DNA from: an uncultured Candidatus Actinomarina sp. | GTDB lineage: Bacteria > Actinomycetota > Acidimicrobiia > Actinomarinales > Actinomarinaceae | Assembly (NCBI GenBank): GCA_902521955.1 | Contig: CABYTP010000003.1 | Span: 5,910 to 69,909, forward strand | Length of the DNA stretch: 64,000 bases | Direction: 5' to 3' | Shown here: positions 2,118 to 50,308 of the stretch, one piece after another | Layout of the letters: each line of letters opens with the position of its first letter | Position numbering within the stretch: the stretch's first letter is position 1 | Notes under the pieces: model-generated | Told to the model about the DNA's origin: nothing | What the model saw: only the letters and a program-made list of their open reading frames with translations | The model's database searches: none | Program-made: the position numbers and the translations under genes

Positions 2118-2747
2118 ATGATAGATGCATATATAAACATAGAAAAAACTCATAAAGAGTTTGATCAACATTTAAAAGATGTTGGTATTAATAAACTCGT
2201 ATTAAAAAGTGTGCAAAGTCCTAAACAAATTAAATTAGTTGTTACTTCCCTTAGTAAATATGGGAATACTAAAAAAAATCTCTCTGATTTAGAATCATCA
2301 AACAAACCTTTCCCAACATTAATTATTGTAGATGATGACCAATTTGTTCAGACAATTGATTTAGTTCAAAACCCACAAATAGAACTAGTTTCAAGCAGTA
2401 GCAAATTAGACGAGATTTCAGCAAGAGTACATGCTCTGGTCGGAGAAGGAGAGTCAGAAATTCTTGAATTCAAAGATTTAACTATAAACTTGAAAACCTA
2501 TGAAGCTAAAGCTGGTGACATACTTTTAGACTTAACTTTTATGGAATATGAATTGTTGAAGTTTTTTGTTGAGAACCAAGAAAGTGTCTGGTCAAGAGAA
2601 GACTTGCTAGAAAAAGTATGGGGATATGATTATTTTGGTGGAGCTAGAACTGTAGATGTTCACGTCAGACGATTACGTGCAAAGTTGGGTGACCTTAGAA
2701 ACGATTGGATAAAAACTGTGCACTCAGTAGGTTATAAATTTAACTAA
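2118..2747 (+). CDS. glnR: OmpR-family orphan regulator GlnR (nitrogen regulator)
   Basis: The C-terminal winged helix [14 protein letters not shown] ... [26 protein letters not shown] ... VHSVGYKF is almost identical to the GlnR signature [26 protein letters not shown]. The N-terminal half is an atypical receiver. The gene is divergent from glnII. Confidence 0.8.
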   Translation: [209 protein letters not shown]

Positions 2748-3164: not shown

Positions 3165-4292
3165 ATGGTACAAAATGATATTTTATTAAAACACCTGTCA
3201 TCAATATATGACCCTGAATTGGCAGTTAATATAGTCGATTTAGGCATGGTAAAAGATATCAAACATGTAGAGAAAGATGTGCATATAAAGCTAGCTTTAA
3301 CTATTGCTGATTGTCCGATGAGAAATCAGATAGAAACAGAGATAGAAAGAAAGCTACTTTTATTGGAAAATGTTGATTCTGTTGAAATTACAACAACAGC
3401 TATGAACCAAGAAGATCGTACCGCGGTAATGGAAAAAGCAAGGAAAAAGGCAAGAGAAAATGCTCAGCCAACGAATATAAATCCTAGAACAAGAGTTGTT
3501 GCTATTGGAAGTGGAAAGGGTGGCGTGGGAAAATCTACTCTATCAGCAAATATAGCTCTTGGTTTATCGAAAGCTGGATTTAAAACTGGATTGCTTGATG
3601 CAGACATATGGGGTTTCTCAATACCACGATTATTGGGAATTACAGGAAGAATAGAAGCCAATGAAGATAAGAAAATGGTACCTTACAAAATTAATGACCT
3701 TGAAGTTGTTTCAACTGGATTAATTACTAGCGATGAAGATACTGCACTGATGTGGCGGGGGTTAATGCTCAGTAAAGCTCTGGAGCAGTTCCTAACTGAT
3801 GTCGAATGGGGAGAGTTAGATTATTTAATAATAGATCTTCCACCTGGTACTGGAGATATTCAAATGGCACTCAGTAGACTCCTACCACAAGCTGAACTTA
3901 TAGTTGTAACAACACCTCAGCTAATGGCGCAGAAAGTTGCAACAAGGGTTGCTGATATGGCCAAAAGAAGTTTCATCCCATTGCTTGGAGTGATAGAAAA
4001 TATGTCATACTTTGAATCTAATTCAGGTGAAAAATTTAACATATTTGGAGAAGGTGGTGGAGAGACTTTGTCAGAAAAATTTGGACTGCCACTGTTGGCT
4101 AAAATTCCTATTAGTGAAGATACAAACAATAAAGCTGATGGTGGAATTCCACTTATTAACCAGGAAAATAACTCTTCAACTAAATTAGCGATTGAAAAAC
4201 TTGTAAAAGATATAGCAATAAAACTACCTCCTGTTGTAGATGAAACATGTACAGGTAGGCTTGCAAAAGTTTTTGAAGAACTTTCAAAGTAA
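3165..4292 (+). CDS. apbC: Mrp/ApbC family Fe-S cluster carrier ATPase with N-terminal DUF59/MIP18 domain
   Basis: N-terminal IYDPELAVNIVDLGMV (DUF59). Deviant Walker A GSGKGGVGKST. DLPPGTGD and a CxxC-less Mrp core. Confidence 0.85.
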   Translation: MVQNDILLKHLSSIYDPELAVNIVDLGMVKDIKHVEKDVHIKLALTIADCPMRNQIETEIERKLLLLENVDSVEITTTAMNQEDRTAVMEKARKKARENAQPTNINPRTRVVAIGSGKGGVGKSTLSANIALGLSKAGFKTGLLDADIWGFSIPRLLGITGRIEANEDKKMVPYKINDLEVVSTGLITSDEDTALMWRGLMLSKALEQFLTDVEWGELDYLIIDLPPGTGDIQMALSRLLPQAELIVVTTPQLMAQKVATRVADMAKRSFIPLLGVIENMSYFESNSGEKFNIFGEGGGETLSEKFGLPLLAKIPISEDTNNKADGGIPLINQENNSSTKLAIEKLVKDIAIKLPPVVDETCTGRLAKVFEELSK

Positions 4293-5587
4293 TGGAAAAT
4301 ATATCTGTTAATAACCTAACTGACTCTACAAATTCTTCTTTGCCAAGAGATATAAAAGTTTTATTAGCTAGAAAAGTTCTTGCAGAAGAAAAAAATATTC
4401 AAATAGCTACTGAAAAATTTTCTGAAATAGTTAAGAATTTAGAACAAAAAAAACAAAGAGAAGTTATCAATGCTACTGGTACAGTTTTGCATACTAATTT
4501 AGGTAGATCTCCAAATAACACAAACTTTTCAGGCAGATATTCAAATATTGAATATGACTTAAATGATTTTAAAAGAGGAACAAGAAATGAATACCTGACT
4601 TCATCTCTAAGTAGTTTTCTTAAATGTGAAGATGTAGCATTTGTAAACAACAATGCATCTTCTCTGTATTTGTCCCTGCGTGCACTGGTAAAAAATAATG
4701 AATATGAGAATGTCATTATTTCTAGGGGGGAAATAATTGAGATTGGGGGATCATATCGACTACCTGAGATAATTAATGAAACTGGACTCAAAATGATTGA
4801 AGTTGGAACTACCAATAAAACCAAGTTGAATGATTACACAAAAGCACTAAAAAATTTTCCTAACTCAATAATATTAAAAGTTCATAGATCAAATTATTCA
4901 ATTTCTGGTTTCACAGAAGAAGTAAGTATAAAAGAACTTGCTGAAATTAGAGATAATTATGAGACTGTTCTATTACATGATCTTGGAAGTGGCTTGGTTA
5001 TAGATAGAAAATTTCTTGAAATAAATAATATCAATATATTCAACAATGAAACTTCTGTTCAAAATTCCCTAGATGATGGTTCTGATTTAGTTATGTTTTC
5101 AGGTGACAAGCTTTTTGGTTCTGTTCAGTCAGGAATAATTGCCGGAAAAAGTAATCTCATAGAGGACATTAAAAAATATAGCCTTTTTAGGACCTACAGA
5201 TGTTCACCATCAATCCTATTTGAACTTCAAGAAACTGTTTCCCGCTATCTAAATAAAAATGAATCAAGTATTCCTTTTTGGCATTTGATGACACAGAGCT
5301 ATAAATCACTTGAAATTAGGTTAAATAATATCGTTACAGACTCCAATTTTAAATTTGATATTGAAGAAGGAACCAGTTTGATTGGAGGTGGTACTCTTCC
5401 TGAAGTTACCATGAAGTCACCTGTATTGCTTTTAAAAGAAGAGGGTAAAAGCTCTACACTTGAAAAATTATTACAAAATGAGATACCTATCATTCCACAT
5501 TTTTATAAAAATAGAATCTGTATTGACTTACGAAGCGTATTTGAAGATCAAGACAAAATAATTAAAAGTTGCCTAAATAAACTATGA
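4292..5587 (+). CDS. selA: L-seryl-tRNA(Sec) selenium transferase
   Basis: INATGTVLHTNLGRS matches the SelA signature (NxTGTVLHTNLGRA). FSGDKLFGSVQSGIIAGK matches the PLP-lysine region FSGDKLLGGPQAGII. The start ATG overlaps the apbC stop (TAATG). Confidence 0.85.
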   Translation: MENISVNNLTDSTNSSLPRDIKVLLARKVLAEEKNIQIATEKFSEIVKNLEQKKQREVINATGTVLHTNLGRSPNNTNFSGRYSNIEYDLNDFKRGTRNEYLTSSLSSFLKCEDVAFVNNNASSLYLSLRALVKNNEYENVIISRGEIIEIGGSYRLPEIINETGLKMIEVGTTNKTKLNDYTKALKNFPNSIILKVHRSNYSISGFTEEVSIKELAEIRDNYETVLLHDLGSGLVIDRKFLEINNINIFNNETSVQNSLDDGSDLVMFSGDKLFGSVQSGIIAGKSNLIEDIKKYSLFRTYRCSPSILFELQETVSRYLNKNESSIPFWHLMTQSYKSLEIRLNNIVTDSNFKFDIEEGTSLIGGGTLPEVTMKSPVLLLKEEGKSSTLEKLLQNEIPIIPHFYKNRICIDLRSVFEDQDKIIKSCLNKL

Positions 5588-7257
5588 CGGTACTTGCTAC
5601 TGCTGGTCATGTTGATCACGGTAAATCGACATTAGTTAATTTTTTAACGAATCAAGAAACAGATAGGTTAGAAGAAGAAAAAAGCAGAGGCTTAACAATA
5701 AATCTTGGTTATACCTATTTCGAATACAAAAAAAGAGCTATTTCAATAGTTGATGTTCCCGGCCACCAGGATTATTTTAAAAATACAATTGCTGGGTTTT
5801 CGAATGTGAATGGAGTCTTGTTTTGTATTGATTCAATTCAGGGATGGTCAAAACAGTCGGAAGAACATTTTAGATCAATTGTAAGCTTGGGAATTAGAGA
5901 TATCTTTGTAATTTTTACCAAGACAGACTTACTAGTGAGCAATCTAGAAAAAGAACCTGTCGTAAAAAAATTTTCAGATGTTAAAGACTTAAATTTTAAA
6001 ATTACAGAATTTAGTTCAAAAACGAGTAATAAAGAAGTTCTACATAAAGAGATTAATGATTTTTTTAAAGATAATGAGTCTTATAAAGAAGGAACTATTT
6101 GGGTTGATAGAACTTTTTCAATAGAGGGTATCGGCACCGTTGTAACCGGAACAGCTAGTAAATATATTGATTTAAGTAGGTTGTATCTAGGTGATAATAA
6201 AAACCCTCTGGAAGTTAAAAAAATACAAAGTCTTGGAAAAGATGTAAATAAAATTGATTCAACATCAAGAATTGCTATCTCCCTTAAAAAAAATCCTTCT
6301 CAGACCCTTCAGAGAGGAGATATTCTTTCAAATAATTTAATAGATAAATCTGAGTATATTCTTCTAGAGACTGAAAACGAATCAGAGTCTTTTAAAAGAA
6401 AAGGTACTATTAGAGCTTATTTCGGGACATCTAATCAAATTGTAAAACAGGTCAAATACTTAAGTGCCGTTGACACAAACATTGCAGTAATTCAATTAGA
6501 TAAACCGATGAGCATTACTGAGGGTCAAAGTGTTCTTTTACACGATTTATCAAAAAATGAGTTTTTAGGAGGAGAAGTTTTATTAAAGACTAGTAATAAG
6601 TTTCATATAAAAAAACTCTTAAAAAACAAGGAACCGCTGGATAGAAATTCATTATTTGAAATTTTAACTTTTACTCCTAAAAAATATTTAGATGAAAATA
6701 TTTCTTATATTGAAATTGAAGATAAATTTATTTCAATAGAAAAACTAAATCTTATAAATAAAAATATTACTGATAACTTAAAAATAGTAAATACTTCTGG
6801 TGTTGAGGATTACTTTTATAAAATACTCTTTATTGAAGCAAAGTTAATAACAAAAATTTTGGAGCAAATAAATGAATTTGATGTAGTGAAGAATCAAATT
6901 ATTCTTAATCAAAAAACAAAGGTTGATTTATCAATTTATAAAAAAATTCTTAACGAAATAACATCTGAATTAAGTATTAAAGAAGTCGAGATATTGAAAT
7001 ATGACAAAGAGGCTGTGAAAGCACTTTTTATGAATAACTATCTTTATAGAATTAATAAAAAATTAGTGATTTCAGTTGATCATAGGGATAAATTGATTGG
7101 ATTATTAAAAACTCTGCCAGAGGCTTTTACGGTAAAAGAATTTAAAGATGCAACAAATTTGTCAAGAAAGTATGCAATTCCATATTTAGAATTTTTAGAT
7201 AGGGAGTCTCTAACTACAAAGATTGATGATAGTGGGAAGAGAAAGAAGCTAGTTTGA
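5584..7257 (+). CDS. selB: selenocysteine-specific translation elongation factor
   Basis: N-terminal ATAGHVDHGKSTL, VDVPGH and TKTD GTPase motifs in SelB arrangement. The long C-terminal extension carries YAIPYLEFLD, typical of the SelB winged-helix SECIS-binding domain. ATGA overlap with selA. Confidence 0.85.
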   Translation: MTVLATAGHVDHGKSTLVNFLTNQETDRLEEEKSRGLTINLGYTYFEYKKRAISIVDVPGHQDYFKNTIAGFSNVNGVLFCIDSIQGWSKQSEEHFRSIVSLGIRDIFVIFTKTDLLVSNLEKEPVVKKFSDVKDLNFKITEFSSKTSNKEVLHKEINDFFKDNESYKEGTIWVDRTFSIEGIGTVVTGTASKYIDLSRLYLGDNKNPLEVKKIQSLGKDVNKIDSTSRIAISLKKNPSQTLQRGDILSNNLIDKSEYILLETENESESFKRKGTIRAYFGTSNQIVKQVKYLSAVDTNIAVIQLDKPMSITEGQSVLLHDLSKNEFLGGEVLLKTSNKFHIKKLLKNKEPLDRNSLFEILTFTPKKYLDENISYIEIEDKFISIEKLNLINKNITDNLKIVNTSGVEDYFYKILFIEAKLITKILEQINEFDVVKNQIILNQKTKVDLSIYKKILNEITSELSIKEVEILKYDKEAVKALFMNNYLYRINKKLVISVDHRDKLIGLLKTLPEAFTVKEFKDATNLSRKYAIPYLEFLDRESLTTKIDDSGKRKKLV

Positions 7258-7509
7258 GATAAAAATTTCTTCTCTTTTTCTCTCTACTTCATTCAACCCA
7301 CCCCAAACACCGAAAGGTTCAGAAATTTCATTTGCTTCTTCAAGGCATTCAATTTTTACAGGACATCCACTACAAACTGCTTTTGCTTTTGCTTCCCTCT
7401 TCTCTCTGTCTTCTTTTTTTTCAAAAGTAGCAGGAGGAAAAAATAGATTACTGCTGTGTTGTCGACAGAGAGCATCGTATTGCCAAGTTGAAATTTTTAT
7501 TTGAAGCAT
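7249..7509 (-). CDS. WhiB-family (Wbl) Fe-S transcription factor
   Basis: 86 aa with C-x(n)-CxxCxxxxxC (ALCRQ ... CSGCPVKIEC) followed by the GVWGG turn. This is the diagnostic Wbl architecture. The 3' end overlaps selB by 9 nt, convergently. Confidence 0.85.
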   Translation of the reverse strand: MLQIKISTWQYDALCRQHSSNLFFPPATFEKKEDREKREAKAKAVCSGCPVKIECLEEANEISEPFGVWGGLNEVERKREEIFISN

Positions 7510-7515
7510 ATTAAA

Positions 7516-7560
7516 ACAATAAACTGCAATTTTTATGTGTAAAAAGATTTTTTTCGCGAA
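7516..7560 (-). promoter_or_regulatory. candidate whiB-like promoter with upstream TTCGCGAA palindrome
   Basis: On the minus strand: TTCGCGAA (7553-7560), 9 nt, TTTACA (7538-7543), 16 nt, TATTGT (7516-7521), 6 nt, ATG. This implies a leaderless or near-leaderless mRNA. Confidence 0.4.
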
Positions 7561-47310: not shown

Positions 47311-48579
47311 TTATAAGTCGTTTATAAATGTATCTTGAAAACTCTGTCTATTTACTAACTCAACCACACCGCTATCAGTTACAGCAACTACTCCAGATTT
47401 GGGTACTCGGTTATAGTTACTTGCCATAGCAAAGGTATATGCTCCAGTAGATGTAGACATTAAAATATCACCAGATACAGTATCTCTTGGCAACATTGCA
47501 TCTTTGACTAATAGATCTCCACTTTCACAGTGCCTACCAGAGACAGCATGCACTACATCGTCTCCAGCTTTTCCACCTGAGATATTAAATAGTTTATGCT
47601 CACTTCCATACAGAGCTGGCCTTGGATTATCAGACATACCACCATCTACCAAAATATATGGCTTCTCTCCTCTATCATCTTTAATGGCTCCAGCAGTATA
47701 TAAAATGACTCCTGGATTATTCACTAATGCTCTACCTGGTTCAATCATGACCTTATATGATCCACTCCAGTGTTCTTTGATTCCTTCATGAATGGCATCT
47801 GCATAGACTTTTAGTTCGTGGTCTACTTCATCACCTGCATAGGGAGAGAAAAATCCACCACCGGCATCAAAGACTATTTCTCTTTCCACACTTGCTGGGT
47901 GAGCATTAAGAAAATCTGCACACTCGCTCATTGCTTTTTTATAACGATCTGGGTCTTTAATCTGGCTACCAATATGGACATGTACTCCAGAAAATAATAA
48001 ATGAGGGGAGTTGTAGATTTGTTGCAGAGCCTCTTCTGCAAAACCAATAGAGATACCAAATTGTTGGTCGTATCCAGAAGTTAATACCATCGGATGTGTC
48101 TCAGCTCCAACATCTAAATTAATTCTCATTATGACCGGTTGTTTTCTACCTAACTTGTTAGCAACCTCTTCTAACATTGGAATCTCAAAACGATTATCTA
48201 CTGAGATATGTCCTCCATTATGTTGCATGAAAAACTCAATTTCATCTTTATTCTTAAAGGTTCCGTTAAATAAAGAATTTTCTAACGTTCCAGTAACAGC
48301 TTGGACTGTTGCCATTTCTCCACCAGAGACAACATCTACTCCCCATCCTTTATTATCTAACTCTTTAACTAGGGCTTTACATATAAATGCTTTTGCTGCA
48401 TATCTAAAATAAGTATCTTCTCCAAATGCATTTGTAAAATGATCAATATTATCTTTTAAATGTTCCCAGTCATACACATATAGGGGAGTTCCATATTCTT
48501 TTGCAACGTCAAGTAATGAAGTCTCTCCGATAAAAGCGACCCCATCCTTAAATTCAAGGTTGGATGGTAAGTAATTCAT
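47311..48579 (-). CDS. lysA: diaminopimelate decarboxylase
   Basis: 422 aa. YAAKAF (PLP Lys), HVHIGSQ, DAGGGF, EPGRALV and CESGD motifs. Confidence 0.9.
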   Translation of the reverse strand: MNYLPSNLEFKDGVAFIGETSLLDVAKEYGTPLYVYDWEHLKDNIDHFTNAFGEDTYFRYAAKAFICKALVKELDNKGWGVDVVSGGEMATVQAVTGTLENSLFNGTFKNKDEIEFFMQHNGGHISVDNRFEIPMLEEVANKLGRKQPVIMRINLDVGAETHPMVLTSGYDQQFGISIGFAEEALQQIYNSPHLLFSGVHVHIGSQIKDPDRYKKAMSECADFLNAHPASVEREIVFDAGGGFFSPYAGDEVDHELKVYADAIHEGIKEHWSGSYKVMIEPGRALVNNPGVILYTAGAIKDDRGEKPYILVDGGMSDNPRPALYGSEHKLFNISGGKAGDDVVHAVSGRHCESGDLLVKDAMLPRDTVSGDILMSTSTGAYTFAMASNYNRVPKSGVVAVTDSGVVELVNRQSFQDTFINDL

Positions 48580-49343
48580 TTTTTTAAGCGACGTTTAATC
48601 CACGCAATATCTTTCTTCTGCGCTTCAAGTCCTCCAGGTGTTTCAACAATAATATCTGTTTTGCAATTCTTAATAACATATTCAAGCTCAGCCTTTGGAA
48701 TGTTTCCTTTTCCTAAGTTTTCATGACGATCTCTTGAACTCTCAAAGCCATCTTTTGAATCATTAAAGTGGACAAGGTCTATTTTCTTTGTAAGCTTTTT
48801 AAACCCCTTAACCGCTTCTTGTGTTGGAATACCTCCAGCCCATGTATGACAGGTGTCTAAACAAAGACCTACATTTAAATGCCCAATAACTTCCCATAGC
48901 CTCTCGATAGAATCCATATATCTAGCAACAGAGTTTTTTCCACCAGCAGTATTTTCTACTAATACTCTCATTCCTGTGTCTTCAACATGTTCTATAGCTT
49001 TTCTCCAGTTTTCATAACCTTCGCCAATATCTCCACCCTCACCAACGGATCCACCATGAACTATGACTGCTTTTGCACCAAATGATGCCGCTACTTTACA
49101 AGTATCTTTCAGTAATTTACGACTTGGATGACGTACTTTATTATTTGGTGTTGGCACATTAATTAAATATGGGGCATGAACATAAATTGGTCCTTCATAT
49201 TCTTGTAAAACATCGACATCTTCTCGAGGTTTTGGGCTTTTCCACATCTGAGGACTAGAAATGAATATCTGAAAAGTGTCTCCTTTTCTGAGTTTTATCT
49301 CTTCTACAGCATTTTTTGAGGGTATATGTGAGCCAATATTCAT
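48576..49343 (-). CDS. nfo: endonuclease IV (deoxyribonuclease IV)
   Basis: HAPYLINV, VHGGS, ENTAGG, CLDTCHTWAGG and HFNDSKDGFESSRDRHENLGKGNI match the Nfo metal-site motifs. 4 nt overlap with lysA. Confidence 0.85.
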   Translation of the reverse strand: MNIGSHIPSKNAVEEIKLRKGDTFQIFISSPQMWKSPKPREDVDVLQEYEGPIYVHAPYLINVPTPNNKVRHPSRKLLKDTCKVAASFGAKAVIVHGGSVGEGGDIGEGYENWRKAIEHVEDTGMRVLVENTAGGKNSVARYMDSIERLWEVIGHLNVGLCLDTCHTWAGGIPTQEAVKGFKKLTKKIDLVHFNDSKDGFESSRDRHENLGKGNIPKAELEYVIKNCKTDIIVETPGGLEAQKKDIAWIKRRLKK

Positions 49344-49511
49344 GAATTAAGTATATATCATTGAAATTATTCTATAAATGGTAAAGATAAAGATTTCAGT
49401 ATTAAACTTAAAGTAGACTTCCTTTCGTGCTTTGAGCCACTTCGAAAGCCGATAAAACAAAAATTACAGCCACAGGGAGTCTTTTTGTGTTTTTTAATAA
49501 AAAATAGTCTG

Positions 49512-49599
49512 GAAAAGTGAAAATCCCAGTTGATCTTGCGACCCTCCGGGATTTTCGAACTATCTTCTATTAGGTCTTGCGACTTCATTTCTGATAGTT
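49512..49599 (-). ncRNA. candidate small RNA, copy A
   Basis: Minus strand: -35 TTGCCA (49628-49633), 17 nt, -10 TATTTT (49605-49610). The transcript then has a CUAUC ... GAUAG stem enclosing GUC-GCAA-GAC. Next comes the hairpin AAAAUCCC-GGAG-GGUC-GCAA-GAUC-AACU-GGGAUUUU (49520-49555), followed by a U-rich tail. Confidence 0.5.
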
Positions 49600-49652
49600 A
49601 TATAAAAATACTCTAGTTTGGCTTATTTGGCAAGAAATTTTGATTAGTTTTT

Positions 49653-49660
49653 TTCGCGAA
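49653..49660. promoter_or_regulatory. TTCGCGAA palindrome 19 nt upstream of the copy A -35
   Basis: Exact 8 bp palindrome in the context AAAAGTTCGCGAAAAAAA (minus strand). Confidence 0.45.
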
Positions 49661-49704
49661 CTTTTATACATGAAATTTATAGAATTTGGAGATATTTACT
49701 GCCA

Positions 49705-49793
49705 GAAAGCAAAAATCCCAGTTGATCTTGCGACCCTCCGGGATTTTTTATTCTATCTTCTTTTCAATCTTTCGATTTCTTTTCAGATAGTGT
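49705..49793 (-). ncRNA. candidate small RNA, copy B
   Basis: Minus strand: -35 TTGCGT (49823-49828), 17 nt, -10 TATATT (49800-49805). The transcript has a CUAUCU ... AGAUAG stem enclosing AAUC-GAAA-GAUU. It then carries the same 36 nt hairpin as copy A (49711-49748), followed by UUUUUGCUUUCU. Confidence 0.5.
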
Positions 49794-49847
49794 TCTATAA
49801 ATATACGTTAGTTTTTGTTCTTACGCAAGATATTTACTAATGTATTT

Positions 49848-49855
49848 TTCGCGAA
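49848..49855. promoter_or_regulatory. TTCGCGAA palindrome 19 nt upstream of the copy B -35
   Basis: Exact 8 bp palindrome in the context AAAACTTCGCGAAAAA (minus strand). It abuts the stop codon of the upstream ORF at 49859. Confidence 0.45.
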
Positions 49856-49858
49856 GTT

Positions 49859-50308
49859 TTACTCTTCTTCTGGCATATTTACTGTGCTCATAAGCGCATC
49901 TATTTCAGCTACTGACACTTCGGCAATTTGGACATTGTATGTTTTATCACTAAACGTAAATTGAAGGAAGTTGTCTTCTTTCATCTCTATAGTTGAAAGC
50001 TCTGATATATCTTTTACGACTGAGAGTACTTTTTCTTTTGTTCTTAAAACTATTTTGGAGTCAATTATTTCAATTACTGGAAGAAAAATACTTTGTACTG
50101 TCACAACTAATTGCAGAATCCCTAAAAAAAGTATTGTGTAGTAGAGATACTCTTCTCGAGCATTGGAACCAAATTCCTGTAAATCAAAATACTGTGATAG
50201 ATATTCCCTAAAAGGACCAGATGTCATATTATCTAAGGCAATATAAGAGAGGGCGATACCAGATAAAAATGGTCTCAGCTGTTTTTTTCTATCTCTATAC
50301 AATTGCAT
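49859..50308 (-). CDS. hypothetical membrane protein
   Basis: 149 aa, two central hydrophobic helices and a soluble C-terminal domain. No motif recognised. Confidence 0.4.
   Translation of the reverse strand: MQLYRDRKKQLRPFLSGIALSYIALDNMTSGPFREYLSQYFDLQEFGSNAREEYLYYTILFLGILQLVVTVQSIFLPVIEIIDSKIVLRTKEKVLSVVKDISELSTIEMKEDNFLQFTFSDKTYNVQIAEVSVAEIDALMSTVNMPEEE

Follow-up and report, generated by a model that had tools for sequence, protein, structure and literature searches.

The 64,000-nt stretch of Candidatus Actinomarina DNA analysed here (the window; contig CABYTP010000003.1, positions 5,910 to 69,909) contains, upstream of the gene nfo, a 515-bp spacer in which two tandem, paralogous units, A and B, were compared with their relatives in other genomes. 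Both units are very probably real, expressed small RNA (sRNA) genes, judging from their sequence conservation and folds. They belong to a family that, among the sequences searched, appears specific to Candidatus Actinomarina and its close relatives. On balance, we favour the reading that the units form an independently transcribed family of structured sRNAs that acts in trans and is read by its partner as folded RNA.

The spacer (49344-49858) is bounded by nfo (48576-49343, minus strand; Pfam AP_endonuc_2), and by an open reading frame (ORF) for a 149-residue protein (hyp149; 49859-50308, minus strand) without a Pfam match. With a genome of ~1.1 Mb and two sigma factors, Candidatus Actinomarina counts as one of the smallest and most abundant of the free-living bacteria in the sea, and the spacers between its genes have a median length of 2-3 bp (PMC7771536; bioRxiv 10.64898/2026.04.03.716425). 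A spacer of 515 bp is therefore exceptional, and the ~190 bp given to each unit is unlikely to be neutral; any non-coding DNA retained in a genome of this kind almost certainly has a function. Approximately 0.5 kb is devoted here to three candidate RNA genes, the third (C) on the opposite strand, and one family, of which at least three copies are kept, has a promoter element of its own. An earlier, sequence-only reading of this DNA had proposed the tandem sRNA genes; a third paralogue at another locus, a conserved TCGCGA box and candidate C go beyond it.

The two units and their homologues

The spacer holds a direct repeat with a spacing of 192-195 bp, and each ~192-bp unit comprises a promoter-like region, an irregular hairpin (P1), a 36-nt hairpin (P2) identical in A and B, and a U tail (Table 1). 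The 36-nt element, AAAATCCCGGAGGGTCGCAAGATCAACTGGGATTTT, occurs in two mismatch-free copies on the minus strand (49520-49555 and 49712-49747), where shuffled sequences predict zero; outside it the units are 73-95% identical. The spacer, the ~192-bp repeat, the promoters, the hairpins and the 36-nt element are all present where the sequence-only reading had placed them, and its proposal of tandem, paralogous minus-strand sRNA genes now gains support from conserved homologues, covarying hairpins and a promoter footprint. Only these two units match the covariance model of the family within the window.

Other Actinomarina genomes and marine metagenomes yielded roughly 150 homologous units. The 28 syntenic genome loci (related loci are cited by L number) contain 47 units, always on the same strand as the 149-residue gene and present in every locus with downstream DNA available, such that the homologous spacers envisaged by the sequence-only reading are conserved in all related genomes in which the region can be seen. 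A degenerate P2 scan of metagenome contigs returned ~100 further units from low-GC marine DNA and ~15 obvious chance matches in high-GC coding DNA. The most divergent units (L045 2188-2273 and L077 6589-6674; 77-79 bits) carry an ACUUA/UAAGU outer stem and a GAUUC-GCAA-GAAUC cap in P1 and an AG/AC loop in P2, and they lie in another gene setting, with glutamate dehydrogenase, an inositol-phosphate-synthase-like gene and a nuclease of PD-(D/E)XK-like type.

This pattern of retention makes it scarcely credible that the units are a decaying duplication or part of a small protein gene. An ATG-initiated ORF of 73 codons (49367-49588) does start inside unit B, and the incomplete identity of the units outside P2 would suit decay, but both unit types are kept in >20 species with covarying stems, and both copies are under purifying selection, which speaks against the decay that the sequence-only reading had itself listed as an alternative. 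As a protein gene, the ORF was rejected: its ATG is absent from A-type and some B-type units, changes are non-synonymous and fall at second codon positions (CTA, CGA, CAA), the 3' end runs into a variable region with differing lengths and 1-nt indels downstream, and there is no Pfam match.

Fold, strand and covariation

The minus strand of each unit folds into two hairpins with z scores of -4.2 (B) and -5.4 (A), whereas the plus-strand folds are weaker (z = -2.0 and -1.1). When 116 distinct units are aligned with MAFFT, 95.2% of cells pair in the two-hairpin structure, as compared with 28-52% when the partners are slid against one another. The corresponding figure is 95.1% in a model-fitted alignment built from 117 covariance-model matches (100 distinct sequences from 70 sources searched), with slid controls at ≤52%. 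Compensatory changes occur at 9 of 24 pairs in the latter alignment, a count matched by none of 500 shuffles. The covariation-like stem changes with retained GNRA loops noted in the sequence-only reading thus extend across the family: all loop variants (GCAA, GAAA, GAGA, GGAA and GUAA) are GNRA on the minus strand. Because both loops stay GNRA when read in this direction, the minus strand is the RNA strand.

The two hairpins vary in different ways. In P1, comparison of homologues reveals compensatory changes at all five outer pairs and at one inner pair (outer stems CUAUC/GAUAG, CUAAA/UUUAG, CUAUU/AAUAG and ACUUA/UAAGU), and the cap stem alternates among G-C, A-U and U-A pairs. In some homologues, Watson-Crick pairs take the place of the purine-rich internal loops of P1, e.g. 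AUUAAGUC/GACUUAAU in L038; the two sides must therefore face each other in a continuous, irregular helix. In P2, every cell is paired and three pairs show two-sided, compensatory change. A G.U pair is found in every one of the 100 distinct sequences, and the CCC:GGG core, this pair and the GGUC-GCAA-GAUC cap each stay unchanged in >95% of them. This near-invariance exceeds by far what a terminator needs. The P2 cap may resemble helix 27 of 16S ribosomal RNA; the registers of the G.U pair differ, and no claim is made.

Single-stranded parts are less constrained. The linker between the hairpins differs between paralogues (AAUAAAA, AACAGAA, UUCGAA, UAAGAA), and homologue alignments contain no invariant unpaired segment in the A and B RNAs. 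The sequence-only reading had drawn attention to an exposed GGAGG in P2, with a speculative role in protein titration or as an anti-Shine-Dalgarno (anti-SD) mimic. In the minimum-energy fold, the first G of this motif is paired within CGG/CUG and the last two open the apical stem, leaving only its A-G unpaired, in a 2x2 internal loop opposite A-A. Moreover, the half-paired motif reads GAAGG or GGAAGG in most homologues, and because GGAGG is not conserved the anti-SD idea fails.

Promoters and termination

A scan for promoter-like sequences returned two matches against 3.1 expected, not above chance; it flagged TTGCCA-17-TATTTT at 49633-49605, and TTGCGT-17-TATATT at 49828-49800 was read directly from the sequence. 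The case for promoters comes instead from comparison. When 43 distinct B-type upstream regions are anchored on a conserved upstream box, three conserved blocks emerge with variable spacers in between: ATGTATAAAAGTTCGCGAAAAAAAC, which holds the box, TCTTGCCAAA (-35) and ACTATTTTTATATAAC (-10 and start region). Conserved blocks between varying spacers are the footprint of a real promoter. Each unit thus has a promoter of its own in the form of a sequence footprint, as would a generic trans-encoded sRNA gene, and the same promoter recurs at a second, unrelated locus.

The upstream box, TCGCGAAAA, is closely tied to the family, with 190 of 191 occurrences in 934 kb of Actinomarina DNA preceding a unit, and is retained even in the most divergent units (L045 and L077). 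It lies ~20 nt upstream of the -35 element and is probably an activator site or UP-type element. The sole box outside the units, TCGCGAAAAA (7550-7559, minus strand), lies 41 nt upstream of a WhiB-family gene (PF02467; ORF 7249-7509, minus strand), which appears to be leaderless, with TATTGT 6 nt before its ATG. This gene may be regulated jointly with the sRNA genes via the box, to judge from the shared motif; the related contigs compared are too alike to show conservation. Because the comparison covers only the flanks of related genomes, the regulon of the box and the copy number per genome given below are both lower bounds.

At the other end of each unit, P2 is built like a Rho-independent terminator, in line with the U-rich tail and terminator predicted by the sequence-only reading: its stable stem has a CCC(G):(C)GGG core, and UUUUUGCUUU or UUUUCACUUU comes after it. 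A simple terminator scanner does not call P2 because the internal loop breaks its stem-and-loop pattern. The A-run and U-run at the base of P2 are symmetric and convergent genes stop right at P2, so that the hairpin probably terminates transcription in both directions.

Genomic context and copy number

Gene order in >100 contigs runs from a histidine phosphatase on the opposite strand through hyp149, an optional 176-residue membrane protein, unit A, variable genes and unit B to nfo-lysA. Depending on the genome, the variable part holds a GNAT acetyltransferase encoded on the other strand, the 176-residue membrane protein, a lipoprotein, a cytochrome P450 or tdh-kbl. Such genes lie between the units in L006, L010, L013, L014, L015, L019, L021 and L025 and between the units and nfo in L007, L011, L017 and L020.

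This context bears on whether the units are cis-regulatory leaders, riboswitches or attenuators, or simply the 5' untranslated region (5' UTR) or promoter of nfo-lysA or another downstream gene, a reading that we regard as very improbable. In the window the units do lie upstream of nfo-lysA, their terminator-like P2 could attenuate, and the unit at the second locus precedes an exonuclease, another DNA-repair gene. A cis-acting leader would, however, be expected to keep a fixed downstream gene, and the downstream neighbour of a unit varies among another unit, a convergent acetyltransferase, a lipoprotein, a P450, an exonuclease and nfo; the gene next after unit A is often a convergent one, encoded on the opposite strand. 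In many genomes the units hold their position though 1-3 kb of unrelated genes part them from nfo. Furthermore, the downstream genes have leaderless-type promoters: nfo and the exonuclease genes keep a -10 hexamer 6-7 nt before the ATG, implying leaderless transcripts, and each unit has its own promoter footprint. The nfo hexamer, TATACT, is kept across all related genomes, even where other genes precede nfo, and its position 6 nt before the ATG implies a leaderless nfo transcript. Since the units persist 1-3 kb from nfo and nfo has a promoter of its own, the units are not the nfo 5' UTR or promoter, and this second alternative named in the sequence-only reading falls as well.

A second locus holds a third full unit, which has an A-type promoter sequence and is flanked on one side by methionine genes (metY-metX, metK or metE) and on the other by a gene for a 5'-3' exonuclease of 277-290 residues, which begins ~40 nt downstream of the unit and is followed by tilS and hpt. 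The exonuclease gene also looks leaderless, with its -10 hexamer 6-7 nt before the ATG. Many lineages therefore have at least three copies per genome. Riboswitches of the SAM-I/IV class (SAM, S-adenosylmethionine) precede the methionine genes in L080 (11037-11128 and 12271-12360), L086 (7306-7397) and L099 (106-197), which places the third sRNA copy at the end of a SAM-controlled operon. In L060 (~3518-3607), the unit at this locus is damaged, lacking ~10 nt of the 3' half of P1; individual copies can therefore be lost.

A further possibility, in our view improbable, is that the units are repeats acting at the DNA level to organise a variable locus, as recombination anchors or cassette boundaries akin to attC sites or repetitive extragenic palindromic (REP) elements, with no RNA function. 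Gene content between and beside the units varies by genome, the paralogues evolve in concert, contigs often break inside units, and in L010 the 176-residue membrane protein gene has been duplicated along with a unit. Against this reading, the compensatory changes and the strictly kept GNRA loops point to selection acting on a single strand that folds in one polarity only, every unit has a promoter footprint ahead of it, and the third copy lies outside any variable region, the met/exonuclease locus not being one. Unit sequences contain no attC core sites (RYYYAAC ... GTTRRRY) and no terminal inverted repeats, having instead two separate hairpins and a promoter footprint. No integrase is present among the flanking ORFs examined, the flanks not having been searched systematically. 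A phage or plasmid origin was rejected: a viral-contig motif scan gave one chance match in high-GC coding DNA, and blastn against phages and plasmids gave none. The varying gene content around the units suggests that the repeats do also promote recombination, more probably as a by-product than as their function. Few internal repeats have been reported for Actinomarina genomes, and the units may be among them.

Relation to known RNA families

In agreement with the sequence-only reading, which recognised no named RNA family in the fold, the whole window gave no match to Rfam 15 (4227 models) at gathering thresholds, and in sensitive mode the region 49300-49950 gave only chance-level matches of ≤18 bits. 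The units of 10 related loci were likewise without matches in a run that recovered SAM-I/IV riboswitches and tRNA as positive controls. The window contains no tRNA or transfer-messenger RNA. No description of the family was found in the literature on Actinomarina and Actinomarinales sRNAs or on the hairpin sequences. The candidate genes of the spacer point to RNA-based regulation that current annotation misses, since Rfam finds nothing here. The family offers targets for the mapping of marine metatranscriptomes, a covariance model for annotating Actinomarinales and a promoter box from which to derive a regulon.

In kind, A and B are a tandem, multi-copy bacterial sRNA family without a match to a catalogued one. 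PrrF1/PrrF2 of Pseudomonas, Qrr1-5 of Vibrio and OmrA/B of E. coli are likewise near-identical sRNAs of ~90-110 nt that occur in tandem or as several copies; each gene has a promoter of its own, an upstream site for a common regulator and a Rho-independent terminator, and copy number varies by lineage. Those RNAs are proteobacterial and Hfq-dependent and have a conserved single-stranded seed, whereas the units conserve helices and GNRA caps and show no sequence or covariance-model similarity to them. Yfr2-Yfr5 (Cyano-1) of Prochlorococcus and Synechococcus are abundant, highly conserved, partly tandem ~90-nt sRNAs present in multiple copies in a streamlined marine picoplankter; they differ from the units in phylum, fold and loop motifs, and the units match no Rfam model. 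Yfr2 pairs with another sRNA, Yfr1. Unlike that pair, the A and B RNAs and candidate C are no more complementary than shuffled sequences, as judged from duplex energies.

Two further families invite comparison on structural grounds. CsrB, RsmY and RsmZ occur as several paralogues with a palindromic upstream activating sequence ahead of a sigma-70 promoter and are recognised through folded modules. They resemble the units in these respects and are the closest analogy for the favoured mechanism with a protein partner. They differ in having repeated, exposed GGA loops, whereas each unit has only two hairpins with GNRA loops and a single GGAGG that is partly paired and not conserved. The 6C RNA of Actinobacteria (RF01066) is similar in size and also has two hairpins, but is defined by C-rich loops; the loops of the units are all GNRA, and there is no match to the 6C model even at E ≤ 10.

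Proposed mode of action

These features suggest a working scheme. Each gene would be transcribed from a sigma-70-type promoter (TTGCNN, 17 nt, TATNTT) with the TCGCGAAAA box ~20 nt upstream of the -35 element, and a factor acting at this TCGCGA box would set the level of the A and B RNAs. The product would consist of irregular P1, a short A-rich linker and near-invariant P2, the last doubling as a Rho-independent, bidirectional terminator. It would act in trans, with selection falling on helical geometry and not on an unpaired seed: the two UC-GNRA-GA caps, the tandem purine-purine loops, the G.U pair and the CCC:GGG core. Preservation of these caps, purine mismatches and pairs, but of no unpaired stretch, is typical of RNAs that are recognised by shape, through protein binding or tertiary contacts, and not by sequence. 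Most likely, then, a partner, probably a protein, would bind the folded RNA, which would serve it as a decoy or scaffold. Recognition of the shape by a protein in particular is put forward tentatively, as a possibility about which we remain more doubtful than confident. In 40 of 65 loci the paralogues agree in their P2 loop signature, versus 19 +/- 2.7 when the pairing is shuffled. This result fits co-adaptation to a common partner; gene conversion would give the same outcome.

The main rival is that the same sRNA genes act by antisense pairing of their purine loops or A-rich linker with pyrimidine-rich mRNA or the 16S anti-SD sequence, which we consider unlikely but worth taking seriously. 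Stretches of GAAAAGAA and AGAAG abound in the RNAs, the commonest precedent is that of tandem paralogous sRNAs that act by base-pairing, such as PrrF1/2 and Qrr, and the neighbouring candidate RNA C has a long, conserved unpaired stretch. However, the A and B RNAs lack an invariant unpaired segment, the linker varies between paralogues, GGAGG is half paired and not conserved, and the loop residues exchange with Watson-Crick pairs and hence lie inside a helix; helices and caps are the best conserved parts.

Several points weigh against the favoured reading as a whole. The purine-rich loops could act as pairing seeds. The near-invariance of P2 and the shared loop signatures could stem partly from gene conversion between the repeats and not from selection by a partner. 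The high similarity of the sequences keeps covariation modest, the model-fitted alignment leans toward the structure of the model, and kinship inflates the shuffle statistics. The analysis yielded no partner protein or target for the A and B RNAs, and neither CsrA nor Hfq is known in Actinobacteria. Lastly, the case for A and B is built from sequence, with transcription start sites and 3' ends predicted. At that level, we take conservation, strand, secondary structure, promoter footprint, independence of neighbouring genes and the lack of a catalogued relative to be established.

A candidate RNA on the opposite strand

Between unit B and nfo lies a nearly invariant block of 72 nt that looks like a gene on the plus strand for a seed-bearing sRNA, C, convergent with B. 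Its predicted fold contains a closing stem of 9-10 bp (AGACUUCC/GGGAGUCU), a stacked hairpin and a conserved unpaired stretch of 20-22 nt (AUAAAACAAAAAUUACAGCCAC), followed by a U run. A -10-like hexamer, TAAACT, lies 6-8 nt upstream of the conserved start; its T, A and final T are invariant over 19 species while the flanks vary, and TAnnnT also holds for most of 61 sequences, a few rows being offset by 1-2 nt in an ungapped view. The strand is indicated by the closing stem, in which a U.G pair and one-sided A-to-G changes are tolerated on the plus strand only, by compensatory variants in the stacked hairpin, whose 3' arm varies in step with its 5' arm, and by a minimum free energy lower on the plus strand than on the minus in 57 of 61 sequences.

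Searches with nhmmer found 75 copies of C in related loci, some 1.3 kb from the nearest unit and some not adjoining nfo; C is therefore an independent element. Three other readings of the block were rejected: as the 5' UTR of nfo, since it is conserved when away from both B and nfo; as an ORF, since it contains 1-nt indels; and as a minus-strand RNA, since there is no fold signal on that strand (z ~0). No target of its unpaired stretch scored above chance within the 64-kb window. A broader scheme would make the RNAs of A, B and the third copy (M) the RNA half of a ribonucleoprotein or titration system with a Csr- or 6S-like role new to the phylum. Their caps would be bound by protein, the TCGCGA factor would be shared with the WhiB-like gene, and with C they would form a single RNA-centred control module in a free-living cell that ranks among those poorest in genes. 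We regard this scheme as speculative and rather unlikely in its entirety.

Feature coordinates and neighbouring genes

Table 1. Coordinates and supporting evidence for the predicted RNAs, their promoter elements and related features. Positions refer to the window unless a related locus is named.
Feature	Position	Strand	Evidence or remarks
Upstream box TTCGCGAAAAA, unit A, ~20 nt upstream of -35	49845-49855	minus	Kept in all units, the most divergent included
-35-like TTGCGT, unit A	49823-49828	minus	Read directly; A-type units keep TTGC(A/G)T
-10-like TATATT, unit A, 17 nt after -35	49800-49805	minus	Invariant in A-type units
Predicted sRNA A, ~88-90 nt, 5' ACACUAUC ... GGGAUUUUUGCUUU 3'	49704-49793	minus	Covariance model, 109.4 bits; ends predicted
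P1 of A: CUAUC/GAUAG outer stem, symmetric purine-rich internal loops, AAUC-GAAA-GAUU cap	49753-49790	minus	Fold
P2 of A: AAAAUCCCGG-AG-GGUC-GCAA-GAUC-AA-CUGGGAUUUU, terminator-like, 2x2 purine loop, invariant G.U	49712-49747	minus	Fold
Upstream box TTCGCGAAAAA, unit B	49650-49660	minus	Conservation footprint
-35-like TTGCCA, unit B	49628-49633	minus	Scan; conserved between varying spacers
-10-like TATTTT, unit B	49605-49610	minus	Scan and conservation footprint
Predicted sRNA B, ~86-89 nt, 5' AACUAUCAG ... GGGAUUUUCACUUU 3'	49512-49600	minus	Covariance model, 101.5 bits
P1 of B: CUAUC/GAUAG outer stem, GUC-GCAA-GAC cap	49560-49597	minus	Fold, homologues
P2 of B, identical to P2 of A	49520-49555	minus	Fold, repeat
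Candidate third sRNA C, between unit B and nfo	49415-49486	plus	Conservation, fold
-10-like TAAACT (TAnnnT) upstream of C	49403-49408	plus	Conservation
-10 hexamer TATACT of nfo, 6 nt ahead of the ATG at 49343	49350-49355	minus	Promoter scan
Third-copy units at the met/exonuclease locus	L099 ~2634-2720		Also in L044, L062, L074, L080, L086, L100, L110, L121, L132, L145

The window has a GC content of ~34%. Relatives of the 149-residue protein are confined to marine metagenomes and to genomes named Candidatus Actinomarina, OCS155 or Acidimicrobiaceae, and one single-cell genome (L001) encodes a protein 99% identical to it. A look-up of the exact nfo protein sequence returned no record.

A TAnnnT hexamer ending 6-7 nt before the start codon, with no Shine-Dalgarno spacing, precedes many of the genes examined, among them nfo (49350-49355), the exonuclease gene (L099 ~2740-2757), the WhiB-family gene and the lipoprotein gene (L135). 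This arrangement suggests that leaderless mRNAs are widespread in this organism. Convergent with the WhiB-family gene is a gene at 5584-7257 (plus strand) with GTP_EFTU and SelB winged-helix domains (precomputed Pfam annotation of identical contigs), which probably encodes the selenocysteine elongation factor SelB.

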